Of a stretch of 36,950 bases of DNA, positions 3,526 through 36,121 are shown piece by piece. Positions within the stretch are counted from its first letter, which is position 1. Each line of letters starts with the position of its first letter. The position numbers and the translations under genes are program-made. Location: positions 1 to 36,950 of the IMG/VR virus record IMGVR_UViG_3300022858_000223. One strand, written 5' to 3'. Origin of the DNA: a virus (taxonomy: Duplodnaviria > Caudoviricetes). The notes beneath the pieces are model-generated. The model ran no database searches. It was given only the letters and a program-made list of their open reading frames with translations, and was not told the origin of the DNA.

Positions 3526-4082
3526 CTCCCTGCTATTATTTTATTACGTTTGACTTCTACCCCTGGAATTATGTTGCAGGGTTTGAGGGCATCAGCTCGT
3601 AGGGCTACCATATCTATTACCCAATATTTCTTAGGGACTAACTTTTCATCTGTAATTATCACTTCTTTATTTGTTCTAAAGTGTATATTGCCTTTTAGTT
3701 TTTCTTCTAGATAAGATATTTTTTTAATCTCTTCGTGTATTTCATTATTTTGTCTTCCAGGTACTAACTTATTCTGTAACTCTCTTCTTTTTTTAATTTT
3801 ATCCGCTTCTATCACATCTGAATATACTACTATTTTCTTCTCTAACGTTTCACAAGTGTCTTTCAGGAGGCTCTCAAGGGGCTTGTAGTCCAACCTAATC
3901 AGTCTTAAGGACTCATTTATAGGTTTAGTCTTTGCTTCTTTATGTTCTTTAATTTTTTTTGAAACCTGCTTAATGTTGGATAATATCTGACTACCCTCGT
4001 CAAAGGTAAATTTGTCAGTTATCTTATGTTCGTTAGCCGTCTTAGCTATCGCTGTTGTTTTAGTTTGTAGTTCTGTGTTCAT
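3522..4082 (-). CDS. Gp157/Gam-like coiled-coil phage protein
   Basis: Long helical N-terminus; C-terminal ITDEKLVPKKYW...IPGVEV pattern; next to SSB. Confidence 0.55.
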   Translation of the reverse strand: MNTELQTKTTAIAKTANEHKITDKFTFDEGSQILSNIKQVSKKIKEHKEAKTKPINESLRLIRLDYKPLESLLKDTCETLEKKIVVYSDVIEADKIKKRRELQNKLVPGRQNNEIHEEIKKISYLEEKLKGNIHFRTNKEVIITDEKLVPKKYWVIDMVALRADALKPCNIIPGVEVKRNKIIAGR

Positions 4083-4092
4083 AATTTTATTA

Positions 4093-4169
4093 TTCAGACT
4101 GGGAGAGATGGTGTAGTCACTATGAGTGAATGTACATCACCCACTGCTCGCACCTCTCCCAGACTTGAA
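4093..4169 (-). ncRNA. Intergenic GC-rich structured element
   Basis: CTGGGAGAG (4099..4107) and CTCTCCCAG (4154..4162) form a closing stem with nested helices; no U-tract. Confidence 0.5.
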
Positions 4170-4175
4170 TATTAC

Positions 4176-4565
4176 TTACTCAAAGCTCTCTGGCATTGCG
4201 TCTTCTGTAGCTACTTCAAACGATTCATCTTTTTCACCTACATACGGTACGATACTTTTGGCGGCGTTGTAGCCCTTAACCTTTGCAGGGATTTCCTCTT
4301 TGAATAGTAATCCTACTACCATACCTGGCTCTACGTTCTTTAGTCTGTCGTTGACGAAGGAATTTTCTTTCTTAACTCCTACGTTCCAGAGTTCACCGTC
4401 TTCGGTGTTCTTGATGACGTATACGATTTGAGCTGGGAATTGATCTTGTCCAGCTTTCTCGTACTTCTCTGTTAGTGTTCCTTTGATTTTGTCCCCTACT
4501 TTTTCAAACTTGAACCAGTTTGATTGTGGGATATTCTCGTCTGAGAATAGTTCGTCTTTTGCCAT
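4176..4565 (-). CDS. Single-stranded DNA-binding protein (OB fold)
   Basis: WFKFEKVGDKIKGTL beta-rich core and acidic C-tail ending ESFE; replication context. Confidence 0.65.
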   Translation of the reverse strand: MAKDELFSDENIPQSNWFKFEKVGDKIKGTLTEKYEKAGQDQFPAQIVYVIKNTEDGELWNVGVKKENSFVNDRLKNVEPGMVVGLLFKEEIPAKVKGYNAAKSIVPYVGEKDESFEVATEDAMPESFE

Positions 4566-6071: not shown

Positions 6072-7862
6072 TTAAAAGTTAATTTCATTAATATCTAATT
6101 CTTCTTGTTGTATATCTTCTATTACTGGAAAGACACAGTGACCACCTTTACCTGCAACAATTTTTAGTTTTACTTCACCTTCAAGAGACTTTATAGCATC
6201 ATCAATAGATTCTCTACTGACGATGTCCTTTAACTTATCTTTAATAGTTGTTTTATTTAACCCTGGTTCACTATTTACTATTTTAAACACCTCGTCTCTA
6301 GCTTTGTTAATTGGATCAAGCAACTCTGCACTCTCACCTAGAAACTCAAACTCTGTTCGTTCATCTTCCTCATTATATTTAATAGCTAAGTCAAATGCCC
6401 CAACCGATTCTCTCCTTCTACTTTTTTCGTTGCTTACTGTCATCGCTAGATACTTCTTGCCGAATGGAGATATTAGTTTCTTACTTCTAACCTCAAGGTA
6501 GATCCCTGCGTTATCTGCTATAGCAGTTGCTCCTCTACCCCTACTTAGTCCAGTTGTGTCTTTACTTTTATTAACGTGATGTAGGAGTATCATTGTTACC
6601 TTAAACTCGTTGCAGATATCCATAAGCTCTATCATTACTGGAGTGATACCACTATTACTGTTTTCATCTGCACTATGTATCTTACTAAACGTATCAAATA
6701 CTACTAGGCTAATCTTATTTTCAGTAATATTTTTCTTTAGCCACGCAACTGAATTTTTATCACTTATATTCCACGATTTTTCACAACTTATAATACTATT
6801 ATTGTCAGGATGACACACGTTCTTAGCTCTAACAATACAATCGTCTTCTGTCATCTCCATATCTATTAATAAACAATTCGACTTTGTAACCTCAAACTTC
6901 CCAAGAAATGGATTGCCCATTGTTATATCATCAATCATTTTTAATATCAGTAGTGATTTACCACACCCGGTTGCACCGTGTATTATATTTAATGATTGTT
7001 TCTTTATTAAATCCTGAACTAAGAAAGGTTGAGGGTCTGGAGTCTTTAGCATTAAATCACTAAAAGTAATTGGTATATATTCATTAATTACCTTTTCTTC
7101 TTCTCTCAGTCTTGTTTTAACTACTGATTGGAAAATCCCTAGTAGTTCTTCTTCTCCCCAATCTTTACCTGGTTGTACTCCCATATTCCACGCCTGCATT
7201 GTGGTCCAGCCAGTTGTTCCCCACTCATTTTGAGGAGTTAGTGATAAGATAAACCCAGCCATACTCGCACCTTTTATATTCCTATCCTGACCCATTTTCA
7301 CACCTTTTAGTAATTCAATAGGATTTTTTCTATTTTTTATATCTTCCTTTATTGACCCAAAAATGTTGTAATCAAAGACTGGCATCTCTTGTTCTTCAAG
7401 AGAAATTGCCCAAGAATAGTCACCGTCTACTTCTCCATCTTCACTATGGTGTAGACTAGGAGGTGCTATAACATAGTTTCCTGTTGATCTAATCTCTCCA
7501 AAACCAGTAGGTGTACCAGTAGTTTTACCATCGTGCTTAAAGTAGTAATGGAATCCGTTACCAGTTTTTACGATTGGAGTGTGGGGTAAAATGATTCCAG
7601 TCTGCTTAAACTTTTCCATATCATCAACATCTAGTACTATTAGGTTTGATACTTCACCGCAAAGTATACCAATTTTAGCATCTGGCCAAGTTGTCCACCA
7701 TTTTTCTACTTCTTCCTTAGTAGGTAATCTATCTTGGTACTCTAGACAAGAAATAAGGTATGGTGCTTTTTTATCTTTTTTACCTTTACTATTTTTTCCT
7801 ATTGGTAATAAAGAAAATCCAAGTGATAGATAGTAAATAGCCCATTCTTTATTTGTTTTCAT
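6072..7862 (-). CDS. Bifunctional primase-polymerase fused to an AAA_25/RepA-type helicase, probable C-terminal wHTH
   Basis: PrimPol motifs LIVLDVD, TGNGFHYYF and GNYVIAPPS; Walker A GATGCGKS; Walker B LVVFDT; LLHHVNK; RGATA. Confidence 0.92.
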   Translation of the reverse strand: MKTNKEWAIYYLSLGFSLLPIGKNSKGKKDKKAPYLISCLEYQDRLPTKEEVEKWWTTWPDAKIGILCGEVSNLIVLDVDDMEKFKQTGIILPHTPIVKTGNGFHYYFKHDGKTTGTPTGFGEIRSTGNYVIAPPSLHHSEDGEVDGDYSWAISLEEQEMPVFDYNIFGSIKEDIKNRKNPIELLKGVKMGQDRNIKGASMAGFILSLTPQNEWGTTGWTTMQAWNMGVQPGKDWGEEELLGIFQSVVKTRLREEEKVINEYIPITFSDLMLKTPDPQPFLVQDLIKKQSLNIIHGATGCGKSLLILKMIDDITMGNPFLGKFEVTKSNCLLIDMEMTEDDCIVRAKNVCHPDNNSIISCEKSWNISDKNSVAWLKKNITENKISLVVFDTFSKIHSADENSNSGITPVMIELMDICNEFKVTMILLHHVNKSKDTTGLSRGRGATAIADNAGIYLEVRSKKLISPFGKKYLAMTVSNEKSRRRESVGAFDLAIKYNEEDERTEFEFLGESAELLDPINKARDEVFKIVNSEPGLNKTTIKDKLKDIVSRESIDDAIKSLEGEVKLKIVAGKGGHCVFPVIEDIQQEELDINEINF

Positions 7863-7987
7863 ATTTTTTTATTTTTAGCAAAAAGCTGAGAGCCAATGTT
7901 AGTTTTCCGACCAACTGACTCCCAGCTCTTTGATAATAATAAAACCCCGTCAAAATGCGGGGTATAATTGTTGGTCGGAAAGTTCAT
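7859..7987 (-). CDS. 42-aa putative leaderless leader peptide coupled to the replicase
   Basis: MNFPTNNYTPHFDGVLLLSKSWESVGRKTNIGSQLFAKNKKI; ATG is 6 nt after the -10 box; TGA overlaps the replicase ATG (ATGA). Confidence 0.5.
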   Translation of the reverse strand: MNFPTNNYTPHFDGVLLLSKSWESVGRKTNIGSQLFAKNKKI

Positions 7988-8077: not shown

Positions 8078-8287
8078 ACCGTTTTACGGAGAGGGGGTCA
8101 AATAGGTATGACACACCGTAAAACGTTTTGTCAAGGGCTTACGGAGGCTTACGGAACGCCCGTAAATAGAATGTGACTTAACCCAGCTATTATTTAGTAC
8201 CCTTTACGGAGGCTTACGGAACGCCCGTAAACGAATGGGGTACGTTTACGGACTTACGCCCCCCTATAGGGGCGGAGACCGTAAACC
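8078..8287. repeat. Iteron-like cluster, putative replication origin
   Basis: About ten TTACGG/CCGTAA motifs in both orientations; exact 28-bp direct repeat at 8139..8166 and 8204..8231; GC hairpin CGCCCC..GGGGCG; non-coding and adjacent to the replicase. Confidence 0.75.
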
Positions 8288-8345
8288 CTGATAGTAGAAA
8301 TTAGAAAAGGAGCAATATGATTGTATTCTTTTTTAGACTGTGCAT

Positions 8346-8374
8346 TTGACAAAAAAGACAATCTATGATAAAAT
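8346..8374 (+). promoter_or_regulatory. Sigma70 promoter for the late arm
   Basis: TTGACA-17 nt-TAAAAT with extended TGn. Confidence 0.85.
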
Positions 8375-8431
8375 GTAAGAGCAGTAAATTGATTGGTACA
8401 ATGTTTACAACTTTACATAAAGCAAACATAA

Positions 8432-8574
8432 TAAAAACCCTGAGCCACACGTCAAAAAAAGACGATGGTTTGGGTTTTTTGTTGCACCTAGGCTATTAAA
8501 CAGACAGATATAGGGGAACAAGTCATCAAACAACTGTTAAACTACAGCCTTAAATCATATCTGTCTGTTTGATA
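8432..8574 (+). promoter_or_regulatory. Structured 5' leader of the packaging operon
   Basis: AAAAACCC...GGGTTTTT hairpin followed by an ~18-bp stem TATTAAACAGACAGATAT/ATATCTGTCTGTTTGATA. Confidence 0.55.
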
Positions 8575-8616
8575 CAATATAACTAAACACAGTAAAATAT
8601 ACTATTTTAATTTTGT

Positions 8617-12944: not shown

Positions 12945-13367
12945 ATGAAAAACGTAATAATCACAATATTCGTGATTTTAGCAATAGGACTTGCAGCAAC
13001 TGCTTATATTTTGTATCCAGATGATACAGAATATAATGTAGGTAGTATTGTCACTGGGCAGTCTTATTATGCTACAAGTACACCTTGGGATGCGGCTCAG
13101 ACTGATGGTGAGATCAAGGGTGGCTGGGGTTCACTAGCTCAAGTGGCAGTTACAAGTGCAGGAGATTTGAAATTTTGTTTGTATGATGCAATTTCAACAG
13201 ATGTAACTCATTTTTCAGAGCTTGGTAGATCTACTTCAACTCAACAACTTACCTGTATCAGTACCGCTACCGTGGGAACTTACACTTTTGATGCTCAGTT
13301 GATTTATGGTCTATATCTTGATGTCACAGAGGGCACAACGGGAACAACTACAGTCACATATCGTTAA
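12945..13367 (+). CDS. Signal/TM-anchored beta-sandwich protein in the head module
   Basis: N-terminal MKNVIITIFVILAIGLAATAYIL; beta-rich remainder (GTYTFDAQLIYGLYL). Confidence 0.65.
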   Translation: MKNVIITIFVILAIGLAATAYILYPDDTEYNVGSIVTGQSYYATSTPWDAAQTDGEIKGGWGSLAQVAVTSAGDLKFCLYDAISTDVTHFSELGRSTSTQQLTCISTATVGTYTFDAQLIYGLYLDVTEGTTGTTTVTYR

Positions 13368-28600: not shown

Positions 28601-31600
28601 AGAGGTTACTTAAATCAAGCTGATGATATATTTGTTGTAGAAAAGAGTGATGGTACAGATTTATTTACAGTAGATAATCTTGGTAACGCTACTACCACAG
28701 GAGATTTAAAGATTGAAGGTAGTTTATCTATTGATGGCTCTGTTAATTTTGCTACTACAACTTGGACTTTTGATGATGGTAATAACGTAGGCTCATTAGA
28801 ACAAAAAGTTTTTGATTCTAATTCCGTTCCTTACAATGCAGATATTAAAAAAGGAATTGTAATGAGTGTGTTTGGACTTTTAGATTATGGCTATATTTGG
28901 AATACTACTGATGACCAAGGACCATTTATGGCTTTTGGGTCTGAAGATTCAGTTGAAGCAGGTATTATGGGCTATAACACAACTACATCTTCTTTCTCTT
29001 TTGCTAATGTTGTTGTTAAAAGTCCAGGGGTAACAGAAACAGAGCCACTTGAATATATAATATTTGCTTCTGAGGTTATAACTCAAATTGCTTCAACCTC
29101 TGATGCAATATTTGGTATGAATGTTGATGGAACAGATGCTACTTCCGAAGTTAGTTCACAACTAAGACTAAGCTCTACAACTGGTGCTTTACATTTTGAA
29201 AATGCTACTTTATATGACTTTACTGATGATATGCAAATAACTGGTAATGTTCATACTTTTGGCAGTTCTACTACAACTGGTTCTTTATATGTTGGTGCTG
29301 CACCTGGGGCAGGAGATGCTTCTGCTTTGAATTATGATGCTATATCTAGTTTTGGAGTACATACTAGAAACCTTTTTCTTTACGCAGACGACATAACTAC
29401 TGGAACTGCCTATTATAATATCTTTAGTGGTTCAGTAGACGCCCCAACTGATTCTGATGCTAATATGTTTATACTTAAAAATTCATTCACAATCGAAGGA
29501 ACTTCTAACTATACAGGAGCAGTAGTTGGTTTAGATAGTGATTTAACTCAAGAAAGTACTGGTAATGTTAATGCAATGTATGGAAGTAATATAGGAGTTG
29601 AACTTGCCAACACTGGTAATGTGGATACTGTTGTTGGTGGTGCATTTAGTATAGACAATGGTCCAGGTGATACTGATGGTGGTGGAGATATTAATGATGG
29701 TCAAATTGTTGTAGCAGATTATACTTCAAATGATTTAGCAGGTACAAATACCTCTATTAAATTGTTTAATACTGTTATAGACCACCAAAACGGAACTTCG
29801 ACTGATATCTATAATTTTTATTCTAATGCTTTATCATATACAGGTGGAAGGGTTGATAGACATTACGGATTTTATTCTCCAACTGGTTGGGGTACTAGCC
29901 AAGCTACAACATCTTACCCATTATATATTGCTGATGGTACTTCTTACTTAGGTGGTGATTTACTAGTTGGTGGTAACGCAACAACTACTGGTTATATGAG
30001 TTCTTCTCATTTTAAGATAGGGGATAATACTGTTTTGCAAGATGCAGGGACAGATAGTATCTTTGTTGGAATTCGAGCTGGACAAGATAACACTGGATGG
30101 AGTTGTGTAGCAGTAGGTGATGAGGCTTTATTTTCAAGCAATAGCGGTAATTACAATACAGCAGTTGGTCGTTACTCTATGAGAACAAACGATGATGGTA
30201 CTAGGAATACAGCAGATGGCTATCGTTCACTCTATGCAAATATTACTGGTGATGAGAACACAGCAGGTGGTTATCAGGCTCTAACAAAAAGTATAGGTAA
30301 TTTTAATACTTCCTATGGTAGTCAGTCTATTACTCAAAATACTTCTGGAGATTATAACACTGCGGTTGGGTCAATTACTTTTTTAAATAACTTAACTGGT
30401 TCAGGCAATGTAGGGCTTGGTTATTACGCTGGTGCTTATGAAACAGGCTCTAATTCTTTTTATGTAAATAATCAAGATAGAACTGATACTGCTGGAGATA
30501 AAACAAAATCTTTATTATATGGTACATTTGCAGTTGATTCAGCAGACCAACAATTGACAGTTAATGGAAATCTTAATGTTACTGGTAACTCAACTACAAC
30601 TGATTCATTTTATGTTGGTGGGGATTTAGAGGTTGGCGATGATGCTACCATAACTAATAAGCTATATGTTGGCAATCATAAGATTGAATCAGATGCTACT
30701 CTCTCTGCCTTAGCAGTTCAAGGCCAAACTTCTGGACAACCTACATATTTTGCTGTTGGCAATAAAGATGACGACGGAACAGACTACGCTGGACTTGTAG
30801 TGTCTGGAAGAAACGCCTTTACTGATATAGCTAATCGTGAAGTACTTATAATGCAATGGAATACTGGTGGCAAGTATGATATTAATACTTTTGCTGCTGG
30901 TACAGGAACAGCTAGAGATTTAGATATTTATGCAGGTAGTGGCAATGGTGGGCAATTATATTTAGAAGCCGGTGGTGATGTTAGAATCCCAAACTTATAT
31001 TCTACTTCAACTTCAATGACTAATGCTACAACTACTGGCACAATGTCTGCTACAACTATCGAAGTTAATGACGATTACATAACTGACTTTACAGGAACAA
31101 ATCTCTCAGTTACTGCTGGTGTTTTAAATGTTTCTGGAATCAGTAGTGGAAATCCATTTGACCAATGGCTTGATACTACTTCAACAGTTCAATTTGCAAC
31201 TACAACAATAAGTGGAATATTATCATTAAATGATGGTGGTAATTCTACTTATGTTGGTGAATTTGCAGGTGTGGTTGATGACAGAACTGATAATAGAAAC
31301 GTAGGTATGGGAACATATGCTTTGTGGAGAAACACATCAGGTTATCAAAATACAGCAATAGGTCATAGTGCTGGTTCTTCTATCACAGAAGGGTATGGTA
31401 ATGCTACTTTAGGTTATCAGTCAGGAAATTCTCTCTCAACAGGAGATTATAATACACTTATTGGCACTGGTTCAGGGTCAGGTATTGTAGGTGGAAATAA
31501 TAACACAACATTAGGATATAATTCAGGAGATAAAATTACTTCAGGACTTGGAAATACAACTTTGGGTAATAATTCTGGAGACAATATTACTACTGGTGAT

Positions 31601-33554: not shown

Positions 33555-33659
33555 ATGAAAAACTATTTAAAATCAGACCCAGACCCACCAGTCATTGTCT
33601 TGGTTTCAATTCTAATAGTGATAACGATTGGTTTAGTAATTTACAATCGTTTACAATAG
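33555..33659 (+). CDS. 34-aa single-TM peptide
   Basis: Manual translation MKNYLKSDPDPPVIVLVSILIVITIGLVIYNRLQ. Confidence 0.55.
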   Translation: MKNYLKSDPDPPVIVLVSILIVITIGLVIYNRLQ

Positions 33660-33956
33660 GTGTTTACAATGTTCATTCTATAGGTTTACAATAGTCACTT
33701 GCCAGTTCAGCCTTGTCTGGACTTATCAAAATAAGAGTGCAGTTAGGCTCCTTGTAGGTACCCCCATACAAATAAGGAGCTGAGCTGGGAGGTGATTACA
33801 ATGTTCATTTTAGGGGTTTACAATAGTCATTTCCCAACTTAATTTCTTTGACGGAATCGTGGGCGAAAAGTAGTTTAAGCCACGACCAGCGAAATTCTGG
33901 GTGAAAAAACTAGAAACTATGTTTTAAAGGAATTAAGTCTGGAGGTGATTACTATG
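33659..33956 (+). ncRNA. Two tandem repeat-delimited structured RNA units with stem-sequestered GGAGGTGA
   Basis: ~50-nt imperfect direct repeat at 33659 and 33791 (partial at 33944). Closing stems pair 33692..33711 with 33779..33798, and 33824..33850 with 33925..33951; many G-U pairs favour the + strand. Confidence 0.7.
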
Positions 33957-34145
33957 GACAATGAATGTCTCTGCGAGTTTGCCTCTAGTTGCCCGATTCA
34001 CCAAGACGGACAAGGATGTGTGCTAAAGCACAACCGCATCTGGGTGATGAATTGTAGCGAGTGGCAAAAGTTTGACGAATCGGCGAACGCCACAACAAGA
34101 ATAGAAAGGAAAGTGTTAGTAGCACAAGACGTAGGTTGCGACTGA
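33954..34145 (+). CDS. 63-aa Cys-rich protein with a strong SD
   Basis: GGAGGTG 6 nt upstream of ATG 33954; CLCEFASSCPIH...C...C; GC-richer than neighbours. Confidence 0.6.
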   Translation: MDNECLCEFASSCPIHQDGQGCVLKHNRIWVMNCSEWQKFDESANATTRIERKVLVAQDVGCD

Positions 34146-34164
34146 CGCAAGTTCTTTAAGCTCT

Positions 34165-34236
34165 TGGGATGGAGCATATTATGAAAACCAGCTACGGGGA
34201 CAAATCCGTAGGTCAAATTCAAAAGGCTCCCTCCCA
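34165..34236 (+). ncRNA. Structured element upstream of the lysin
   Basis: TGGGA-T-GGAGC pairs GCTCC-C-TCCCA, enclosing hairpin CTACGGG/TCCGTAG (34192..34211). Confidence 0.5.
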
Positions 34237-34308
34237 CCCTTTTCTTATGAAACTACTACTACAAACAATTGACCATATCAAAGGTATCTTACGATTAATT
34301 TTTACATT

Positions 34309-35352
34309 ATGAAAAATATGGGCTTCAATCCAAAATTAGAAGTAGAACACTCATCTGTAGAGGATTATGTTTTAGGGTCAACCAAAACTTTAACTGGTGT
34401 AGCTGATAAGATTTCTGGTATTGTTGGTGCAGTCTATGCTTGGCCTAGCCCCAAAGATGGTGTTTATCCAAGAGTATTAAATAAAATTAATCACGCTATT
34501 GATTTTGTTAATGAGATGTCAAAAAAATATCTACCAGACGGAACAGTCCAACGAGGGAGTCAAGATTGGATGAACTGTGCTACCAACGCACCTTTAAATG
34601 AGTTAGAAAAACAATTTAACTATGCTATTGAAAAAGGATTTTTTACCGATGGTTTAGTTGAGTGGTTTAAAGAGGTTGGGTTTATTAATAATGGAAAGTT
34701 TGAAATAGCAGATGCTTTCAATACAATACTTTCAGGCACTACAAGAAATGGTAACTCACTTAAATCCCCGATTGAGTCTATAAGAATTGACGGCATAATT
34801 CCTAAGTCAGTATTGCCTGATAGCAAATCAATGAACTGGAGTCAATACCATAATCCAAATAGAGTCACTAACGAGATGCTAGAACTTGGCCAAGAGGTTA
34901 AAAAATATATAGAGTTCGGTTATCAGAAAGTTTCTTATAGTAAATTTAATCAATTCCTAGATATTAAGTGGGATATAATGGATAGTTATGTTGATAGGGT
35001 AGACGGTGACTTTATAAAGAGATTGGCATCAAATTATAATATAATGTCTTATGGATATCACCTAACTATTAACCAAATTAATGAACCTAAAAAAGAGGAA
35101 AATAATATGAAAGTAGAAATTGAAGTAGTTAAAAAACTTAATTCACCAGACTATCTTTTACGAGATAAAAAAGAACCTAGTATATGGCACAGACTTGGTA
35201 ATGAAAAAGTATTTACAGCTATAGCAGGGGACTTCCCTGAAGAAATTGAGGAGTTAGATATTGCTGACGAGAATATTAAAGATCCAATTTACTTTAGCAG
35301 TTCTTTACTAGATATAATTGTTAGTTTCTTTTCTAAACTAAAAGGTAATTAA
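34309..35352 (+). CDS. Papain-like (C1-type) cysteine peptidase, putative lysin
   Basis: Q...MNCATNA (catalytic Cys region), SGTTRNGN..SIRIDGIIP, WDIMDSY and INHAI; flanked by holin-like genes. Confidence 0.6.
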   Translation: MKNMGFNPKLEVEHSSVEDYVLGSTKTLTGVADKISGIVGAVYAWPSPKDGVYPRVLNKINHAIDFVNEMSKKYLPDGTVQRGSQDWMNCATNAPLNELEKQFNYAIEKGFFTDGLVEWFKEVGFINNGKFEIADAFNTILSGTTRNGNSLKSPIESIRIDGIIPKSVLPDSKSMNWSQYHNPNRVTNEMLELGQEVKKYIEFGYQKVSYSKFNQFLDIKWDIMDSYVDRVDGDFIKRLASNYNIMSYGYHLTINQINEPKKEENNMKVEIEVVKKLNSPDYLLRDKKEPSIWHRLGNEKVFTAIAGDFPEEIEELDIADENIKDPIYFSSSLLDIIVSFFSKLKGN

Positions 35353-35615: not shown

Positions 35616-35696
35616 ATGATTGACGAAGAAAAACAAGAAGAAGTAGCTGAAGAAGCTACAGAAGAAGAAGTGGAAGCAGATGTTCCTACTTTGTAG
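35616..35696 (+). CDS. 26-aa very acidic peptide
   Basis: MIDEEKQEEVAEEATEEEVEADVPTL by manual translation. Confidence 0.4.
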   Translation: MIDEEKQEEVAEEATEEEVEADVPTL

Positions 35697-35698
35697 GT

Positions 35699-35745
35699 AA
35701 AAAAAAGACCGTATAATTTGCCTTATTTTATACGGTCTTTTTTTT
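35699..35745. terminator. Bidirectional intrinsic terminator between the convergent arms
   Basis: A-tract + GACCGTATA / TATACGGTC + T-tract. Confidence 0.85.
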
Positions 35746-36121
35746 ATTTCAATTCACAAGTTATACCATAGGTTTTAGCAAACTTTTCAGTTATACTTTT
35801 TCTACCTATGTTATCTTTCATAAATATCCAATGTTCTATTTTAATCATATAGAATCTCTTGCACCCTCGTTTATAGAACTGAACTACTACATATCCTGGA
35901 TCATCTACCATTGTGAAGCAATCGAATGGCTTTGGTGCAGGGTCGGAGTCGGGTAGCTTGTATGAGACGCTGTTATTGCTCAATCCTAGCTCCTGGTGAG
36001 GCTTTAGGGCGTTAAAGGGTATAAACCCCTTCTTAGTAAACTTCAGTTCAAATCGAGCTGTTTCTTTGATATTATACTTGCACCATTTGCTGAACTTTGT
36101 TTGGAAGTCTTTTTCTAACAT
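35744..36121 (-). CDS. PD-(D/E)XK nuclease, RecU-like Holliday junction resolvase
   Basis: EKDFQ, FELK, LKPHQ, KLPD..KPFDCF and RKSI motifs. Confidence 0.65.
   Translation of the reverse strand: MLEKDFQTKFSKWCKYNIKETARFELKFTKKGFIPFNALKPHQELGLSNNSVSYKLPDSDPAPKPFDCFTMVDDPGYVVVQFYKRGCKRFYMIKIEHWIFMKDNIGRKSITEKFAKTYGITCELK

Follow-up and report, generated by a model that had tools for sequence, protein, structure and literature searches.

Why do phages that mostly avoid Shine-Dalgarno (SD) initiation keep a stem-locked SD of 9-10 nt for one small gene? The question is raised by a locus in a virus record that is complete within the 36,950 bases analysed here (the window) and carries genes for terminase, capsid, primase-polymerase and helicase, and its answer bears on translation start in SD-poor bacteria and on the packaging and swapping of non-coding RNA functions by phages. 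When pairing with the 16S tail (sequence taken from PMC6107228) was scored, none of the 33 non-overlapping window ORFs of at least 80 aa had an SD of -8 kcal/mol or better, and the other three phages that carry the module described here are also SD-poor (0/30, 0/4 and 3/42 ordinary ORFs with an SD). The first-pass annotation had singled out the SD-start pairs of this locus as the only strong ones it saw. The three ORFs it named all exist, and those at 33801 and 33954 have strong SDs (-17.7 and -16.8 kcal/mol), whereas that at 33669 is weak (-6.3 kcal/mol). The region is contained in 24 listed sequencing runs, all labelled salt lake metagenome, with no RNA dataset among them. A Parcubacteria label appears on two of 56 homologs of the downstream 347-aa gene, which does not establish the host, and the capsid homologs compared bear no host label; a search for tRNA and tmRNA returned none.

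We found at this locus (Table 1) what the comparisons below support well as a mobile and hitherto undescribed RNA frame whose cargo is exchangeable. The locus had been described as a repeat-spacer array of structured RNAs, built on a repeat of about 50 nt that recurs at periods of 132 and 153 nt. Both periods are real, and a 47-nt repeat is present in two full copies at the first of them (33658-33704 and 33790-33836, 87% identical); the second corresponds to a 30-nt match, in which only the SD half of the repeat, that is the 3' arm, returns as a third partial copy at 33941. A covariance model likewise finds two units in the window and no third. In place of an array there are two framed units, followed by a protein gene and a tail stem that ends near 34242, and the stretch 33954-34240, once taken for a third structured cargo, consists of this gene and the tail stem. 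CRISPR-type features are equally lacking, with two full repeats, periods of 132 and 153 nt and structured cargos of 35-105 nt, and the CRISPR-DR2 model matches the region at an E value of 8.6 only. The motif (T/A)TTACAAT does occur six times, as had been noted, always between 33640 and 33817; such clustering within 185 nt was seen in 0/20,000 random placements and arises because one block was duplicated. The last codons of the 34-aa ORF supply two of these copies. Small membrane-type ORFs also lie upstream of the first unit in loci L108 and L141, and from our reading of the sequences we regard the small hydrophobic genes upstream of the module in three of four lineages as holin-like.

Table 1. 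Positions of the module and its neighbouring genes in the window
Feature	Position	Strand	Remarks
Hydrophobic ORF, 34 aa	33555..33659	+	just 5' of the module
Linker block 1	33658..33691	+	two TTACAA copies 22 nt apart
Framed unit W1	33692..33798	+	closing stem of ~20 bp, two-hairpin cargo
SD arm of W1, GGAGGUGAU	33788..33796	+	paired in the predicted fold
13-codon mini-ORF	33801..33842	+	runs into the W2 5' arm and has its stop codon there
Framed unit W2	33824..33951	+	26-bp closing stem (5 G.U), cargo with a possible H-type pseudoknot
SD arm of W2, GGAGGUGAU	33941..33949	+	ribosome-binding site of the Cys/His gene
Cys/His protein gene, 63 aa	33954..34145	+	purifying selection
Tail element	34166..34243	+	10-bp G/C-rich closing stem, inner hairpin, ACC, U run
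347-aa gene	34309..35352	+	downstream, outside the module

The suggestion that stems enclose unrelated structured cargo holds for both units, which fold far better than shuffled sequences on the plus strand (W1, z -5.1; W2, z -5.5; 0/200 shuffles as good) and more weakly on the minus strand (z -0.7 and -2.2). Stem covariation, the absence of which was among the outcomes set beforehand as counting against the first-pass reading, was found. In an alignment of the frame from ten units, 92% of 238 cells are paired, as opposed to 33-52% in slid controls of the same alignment, and 12 of the 24 frame pairs show two-sided change, a value that none of 500 shuffles reached, although relatedness among the ten units, which represent four lineages, makes the shuffle test overstate the significance. 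All but one of the 12 two-sided changes lie at pair 11 or deeper. In the outer part of the stem, GAGGU on the 3' strand is invariant in 10/10 units while four of its five partners vary, as would be expected if this strand had a second partner in the 16S tail. The plus strand folds better than the minus strand as RNA by 5.8-17.3 kcal/mol in each of 12 units, the same comparison as single-stranded DNA yields only -0.6 to 5.5, and all 12 units are co-oriented with their flanking genes. Continuous stems of 18-26 bp are present in 11 of the 12 units, and only unit D has a shorter closing stem (13 bp). The predicted burial of the ribosome-binding sites, with an unpaired probability of 0.005 for the SD arm of W2, and the covariation in the stems both agree with the earlier claim that the stems sequester SDs. 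We consider it very probable that the units represent a selected plus-strand RNA frame, which carries swappable cargo and masks a working SD.

Inside W2, the stem UCGUGG/CCACGA (33857-62/33880-85) and the complementary stretches UAGUUU/AAACUA (33871-76 with 33907-12 or 33914-19) are indeed present. A loop-to-downstream match of 6 bp, as in the proposed pseudoknot, arises in 322 of 5,000 shuffles, and the cargo of W2 is without homologs for comparison; the pseudoknot is thus a possible feature of the model. In cargo B of locus L119 (1811-1854), two hairpin loops share 6-7 complementary bases and could form a kissing interaction.

The frame occurs in four phage lineages, including that of the window, with seven cargos (W1, W2, A, B, C/C', D and E) in arrays of one to five units per locus, upstream of the same Cys/His gene family, and our model R1 finds units at only one site per contig searched. 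In one lineage, loci L108/L121, L119 and L120 have arrays of three, five and four units, respectively, whose cargos are A, B, C, C' and D, and in L119 a 134-aa gene lies between two units. Locus L141, of another lineage, contains a single unit (cargo E), followed by an SD-led ORF of 10 codons and the Cys/His gene, after which come a basic Cys/His ORF of 56 aa and two more stem-closed elements. In the remaining lineage, the L032 type (also L095, L107, L118 and L123), W1, the Cys/His gene and the tail are 95-99% identical to those of the window and are flanked by a ParB-methyltransferase region and the terminase small subunit. This type is without linker block, mini-ORF and W2, so that unit 1 joins the Cys gene directly. 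In contigs from four runs, the block shared with this type starts at 33692, the first base of the 5' arm of W1, and ends at 34242, where the tail ends. The 152-nt block 33799-33950 is missing from this co-occurring phage, and the corresponding join of 33798 to 33951 was seen in 4/4 runs examined; as a second phage explains it, the join is not evidence of excision. Units and one gene have thus been gained or lost at the module site.

Searches beyond these loci returned mostly chance matches. Three pattern scans of viral contigs gave two matches in unrelated sequence, both by chance; 97 loci, of which two (L032 and L095) are true by fold and sequence; and 12 loci with one true member (L127), which is the L108 record again. 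A T4-like sequence that appeared in five copies was discarded, since its match runs across the beginning of a clamp-loader-like gene encoded on the opposite strand; the remaining pattern loci fold weakly (L133 and L135, 16 bits), and L124, L137 and L142 are chance protein matches. The module is absent from the annotated phages and plasmids searched, and the terminase relatives L101-L105 do not extend to the module region. Among the carriers, the second module phage G001 (L140 6011-7540 and 8152-8445) encodes GroEL, GroES and two DNA methyltransferases, and the terminase large subunit gene of L120 (4096-5187) has, by eye, an apparent intein-like insertion. We found no published description of the element, and the seven supplementary files of PMC10690425 that were covered contain no arm or tail motifs and no contig names (files 1 and 2, outside this search, may bear on novelty).

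The gene at 33954-34145 is under purifying selection as a protein gene, judging from its comparison with a 71%-identical homolog (15, 6 and 25 differences at codon positions 1, 2 and 3; dN/dS 0.14). C7, C13, H16, G19, C22 and C34 are invariant in 12 aligned members of the family, the L141 protein being 41% identical to that of the window, and this residue pattern makes a metal-binding function likely. Among 1.84 billion representatives, a profile search matched 10, of which eight short proteins were kept and two long repetitive ones dropped. The protein has no Pfam or PHROG family, its AlphaFold model (pLDDT 53) is too poor for a structure search, and its ESM Atlas matches all stay below 0.8, with none named. 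A match to RT-3 RNA (Rfam RF03068; 33996-34156, 17.5 bits, E 0.095, gathering score 40.5) was rejected, as it falls inside this selected gene, is absent from the L108 region and has no reverse transcriptase beside it in the window; RT motifs are described in PMC5737381. In L108 and L120, a second small Cys/His ORF follows (weak DUF1660 match, E 0.019, below the cut-off), whose SD lies within the final codons of the preceding Cys/His gene; the window retains only the last few bases of this ORF. The stem of the tail spans 34166-34235, and a 25-nt core within its inner hairpin (34188-34212) is identical in the diverged L108. Tail covariation is not significant (two pairs, 56/500 shuffles). Extra stem-closed elements after small genes in L141 (1740-1803 and 1810-1876) and L108 (1839-1877), with z -2.6 to -4.9 and a C-rich tetranucleotide plus U run at the end, resemble the window tail and may form a second frame family.

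The arrangement of starts behind the SD arms limits what the frame can do. An ATG follows 8-9 nt after GGAGG in six of nine units checked, as with the 8 nt between the W1 arm and ATG 33801, and four of these starts belong to the Cys/His gene, since W2, W1b, C and D each directly precede it; no ATG stands at a usable distance from the arms of A, B and the L119 copy of C, and two SD arms are degenerate. For W2, B, C and D, the predicted cost of opening the SD is 13-15 kcal/mol, which the 17.5-18 kcal/mol gained by pairing with the 16S tail would cover; for W1 and W1b the cost is 18.8-21.9 kcal/mol and exceeds this gain. If only the outer 11-bp duplex were left, its strength (-9.5 to -13.8 kcal/mol) would be exceeded by that of the SD:anti-SD pairing (-15.2 to -18.4 kcal/mol) in 6/6 units; if 14 bp of the outer stem persisted, the duplex would equal or surpass SD:anti-SD in strength in W1b and D, while the advantage shrinks to below 2 kcal/mol in W1 and E. 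The position of a cut would therefore matter. In the window, folding also suggests that, after removal of the 5' arm, the SD can be captured again by another sequence, which lies within the Cys gene.

We tentatively prefer a module in which an RNA stem with swappable cargo locks the SD and is opened by cutting of its long inner part, a reading to which we give somewhat less than an even chance. The unit would be transcribed within a late operon, with the conserved stem around an exchangeable cargo burying the SD of the Cys/His gene. A host double-strand RNase would cut the long inner stem; the cargo would thereby be set free as a small RNA and the ribosome-binding site become accessible, because the remaining outer 11-bp duplex would lose to the 16S tail. 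Recombination between the repeated arms may account for the gain and loss of units. Since the Cys/His protein is selected, it must be made, behind W1b and C as well, where the stem is entered by no ORF; the lock therefore has to open in such contexts too, and a cut in the inner helix would fit all of them. Release of the cargo by the cut would further explain why different folded RNAs share one frame and why some units lack a gene downstream.

The first-pass annotation had instead proposed a timer or sensor cascade for lysis, in which ribosomes on each mini-ORF open the next stem; more broadly, translation of any upstream ORF could melt the 5' arms in series and expose one SD after another. 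In three of six contexts an ORF does read into the arm and stop inside the stem, and when a terminating ribosome is modelled there, exposure of the SD rises from 0.005 to 0.34 in W2, from 0.11 to 0.35 in unit E of L141 and from 0.002 to 0.47 in unit D of L119; L141 in addition places its SD-led 10-codon ORF between unit and Cys gene, and blocking of the W1 5' arm lets the W1 3' arm pair with the W2 5' arm. This shift of register, however, lifts exposure of the second SD only from 0.007 to 0.065 and has no effect in L120, and in the other three contexts the ribosome footprint is without consequence. Among the latter is W1, where a ribosome at the stop of the MFIL ORF (33669-33683, within linker block 1) would change exposure from 0.114 to 0.127 and leave the stem closed. 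The cascade also lacks its ORFs elsewhere: the linker block of L108, L119 and L120 has AGG for the MFIL ATG and TACAAG for TACAAT, the L032-type phage has no mini-ORF, and the junction of B to C in L120 is without an ATG. The mini-ORF of the window shares frame and stop with the end of the 43-aa membrane-type ORF of L141, and since this common stop codon is part of the conserved stem, the read-in may be incidental. Nor would a relay explain the differences between cargos. A link to lysis is weak, because the downstream gene varies among phages: in other carriers it encodes the terminase small subunit, an unknown 209-aa protein or a Ser-rich repeat protein, none of them a lysin. In the window itself, the 347-aa protein (invariant Q81 and C90, model pLDDT 87) matches almost only papain-type cysteine proteases by fold, and weakly so (best E 0.009, none at 0.001 or better), which does not bear out its earlier designation as a lysin; it has no relative in the viral contigs searched. 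Ribosome coupling is plausible locally in the model, where an upstream ORF such as that at 33801 enters the 5' arm and termination could provide a second route of opening, but it is not the rule, and serial melting as the general principle appears unlikely to us. Our best guess from the sequence comparisons is that processing signals, the alternative raised in the first-pass annotation, describe the stems better than a relay does.

Other readings explain the cargos or the SD in different ways. The cargos could be sensor domains for a metabolite, an ion or a protein, perhaps the Cys/His protein itself, in the manner of tandem riboswitches; their folds are compact and contain several helices, tertiary pairings are possible in W2 and B, and the opening costs of W2, B, C and D lie within the reach of the 16S tail. 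Against this, four unrelated cargos precede the same gene, which differs from the usual riboswitch-gene pair, no cargo segment appears by eye to be able to pair with the 5' arm, closing stems of 18-26 bp are long for a switch, and Rfam offers no riboswitch match, so that we regard sensing as decidedly unlikely. A long SD might alternatively read the state of the ribosome, such that only ribosomes with an exposed anti-SD out-compete the stem. A normally hidden anti-SD in Bacteroidetes and the rpsU precedent of Flavobacterium are reported (PMC13000453, PMC7797042), and genomes without SDs except for an extreme one of 9-10 nt, with an opening cost close to the pairing gain, would suit such a device. 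We nevertheless hold it to be quite improbable, considering that W1 and W1b cost more to open than pairing returns and that neither the cargos nor the SD arms without ATG would be explained. What the phages exchange could also be DNA-level recombination or mobility sites, similar to attC or REP hairpins, with the SD as a by-product. The varying order and number of units, the gene between units in L119 and the sharp shared ends point in this direction, but the units show a large strand bias as RNA and a small one as DNA, the junctions fall at varied points in the arms, GTTRRRY/RYYYAAC ends (the attC consensus) were not seen by eye, and there is no integrase, transposase or reverse transcriptase among the 37 window ORFs or the 19 scanned of about 40 ORFs in G001; this origin is accordingly very improbable in our view. 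Still less do we expect that each repeat is a promoter that drives its own small RNA, in the manner of PeSL (promoter-early stem-loop) cassettes. Linker block 1 resembles a -35 TTTACA and a -10 TACAAT separated by 18 nt, both linker blocks match sigma-70 promoters at 10 and 9 of 12 positions, and the 22-nt spacing is kept in L108 and L120. Yet the region holds 14 such sites compared with 10.4 +/- 3.0 in shuffles, the -10 element overlaps the first base of the stem, so that a transcript would begin inside the 5' arm, and it reads TACAAG in relatives. The linker block, moreover, does not precede W1b, B, C, C', D or E, and linker block 1 is found neither in the L032-type phage nor in L141.

A bolder version of the preferred cut-and-release reading would regard the module as a library of payloads in a standard RNA chassis, traded among phages whose hosts make little use of SD pairing; the payloads would be cut out as effectors while the extreme SD ties their release to protein synthesis. 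We consider this extension improbable, though not negligible; were it true, the cargos would be several new functional RNA classes on a common expression scaffold, and the SD would couple payload release, or exposure of the anti-SD tail, to the synthesis of a small metal-binding protein. In any case, a constant frame with an exchangeable interior that recurs across unrelated phage genomes constitutes an RNA family without an Rfam match, and it offers a small protein family together with seven compact RNA candidates, all of them testable in vitro without the host.

The closest known parallels share parts of this design. RNase III processing stems of phage polycistronic RNA, such as R0.3 and R1.1 of T7, are long intercistronic helices beside a ribosome-binding site, as are the units described here, and a continuous helix of about two turns, the usual length for such sites, is present in all units but D. 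To our knowledge, RNase III sites do not enclose swappable cargos of 35-105 nt. Leader-peptide attenuators of the ermC type have an upstream ORF that ends inside an SD-hiding stem, as in three contexts here, but we see no conserved leader peptide and no stalling motif, and units without a read-in ORF serve the same gene. Mini-III of B. subtilis is described as preferring ACCU/AGGU sites (PMC4357697); AGGU is invariant on the 3' strand of the frame, although its partner is ACUU, AUUU, ACAU or GCUU and never ACCU. PeSL cassettes, as described for the T4-type phages RB49 and phi1 (Arbiol et al. 2010, PMC2839356), are repeated intergenic regulatory cassettes that end, like the window units, in an SD followed by a start codon and act as recombination points for the gain and loss of small genes. 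According to that account, they carry consensus sigma-70 promoters and a short terminator-like hairpin and number about 50 per genome in early regions, whereas the units here number one to five at one late-region site, have no conserved promoter (a promoter-like block stands only before W1, W2 and A, and is degenerate in A) and use the SD as one strand of a long stem around a variable folded cargo. No ribozyme or riboswitch of Rfam 15 comes near its gathering score in the window (33600-34310), L108 (980-1900), L119 or L141, and of the pistol, twister, hatchet, hairpin and HDV-like cores, none fits by eye.

A second structured element of the window, at 861-975, had been put forward as an RNA complementary to the SDs. 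It does pair with the SD arms, mainly through an anti-SD-like core, but the strand that is used is unsettled: the element folds on both strands (z -3.7 and -4.3), with a perfect 13-bp closing helix including G.U pairs and two SD-like stretches on the plus strand, and with part of the anti-SD-like stretch in a loop on the minus strand. Among the 11 loci compared, on incomplete contigs, it was seen only in a near-identical copy of the window phage. Near this element, a complete-looking hammerhead ribozyme core with three stems lies on the minus strand at 751-798, upstream of ORF 590-30 and inside a stem closed at about 716-835; the Hammerhead_HH9 model gives 20.8 bits (E 0.016), below its gathering score of 52. 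Short tandem repeats occur at 1068-1206, as a 6-nt run of the GACC(C/G)A type, and at 415-565, as a 9-nt run that encodes a Cys-rich repeat at the start of ORF 590-30. Strong folding (z < -4 on one or both strands, with 15 shuffles per stretch) was also observed at 4081-4200, 7861-7980, 8221-8580, 12961-13080, 31141-31320 and 35641-35820, the last of which includes a stretch (35656-35805) that resembles a bidirectional terminator.
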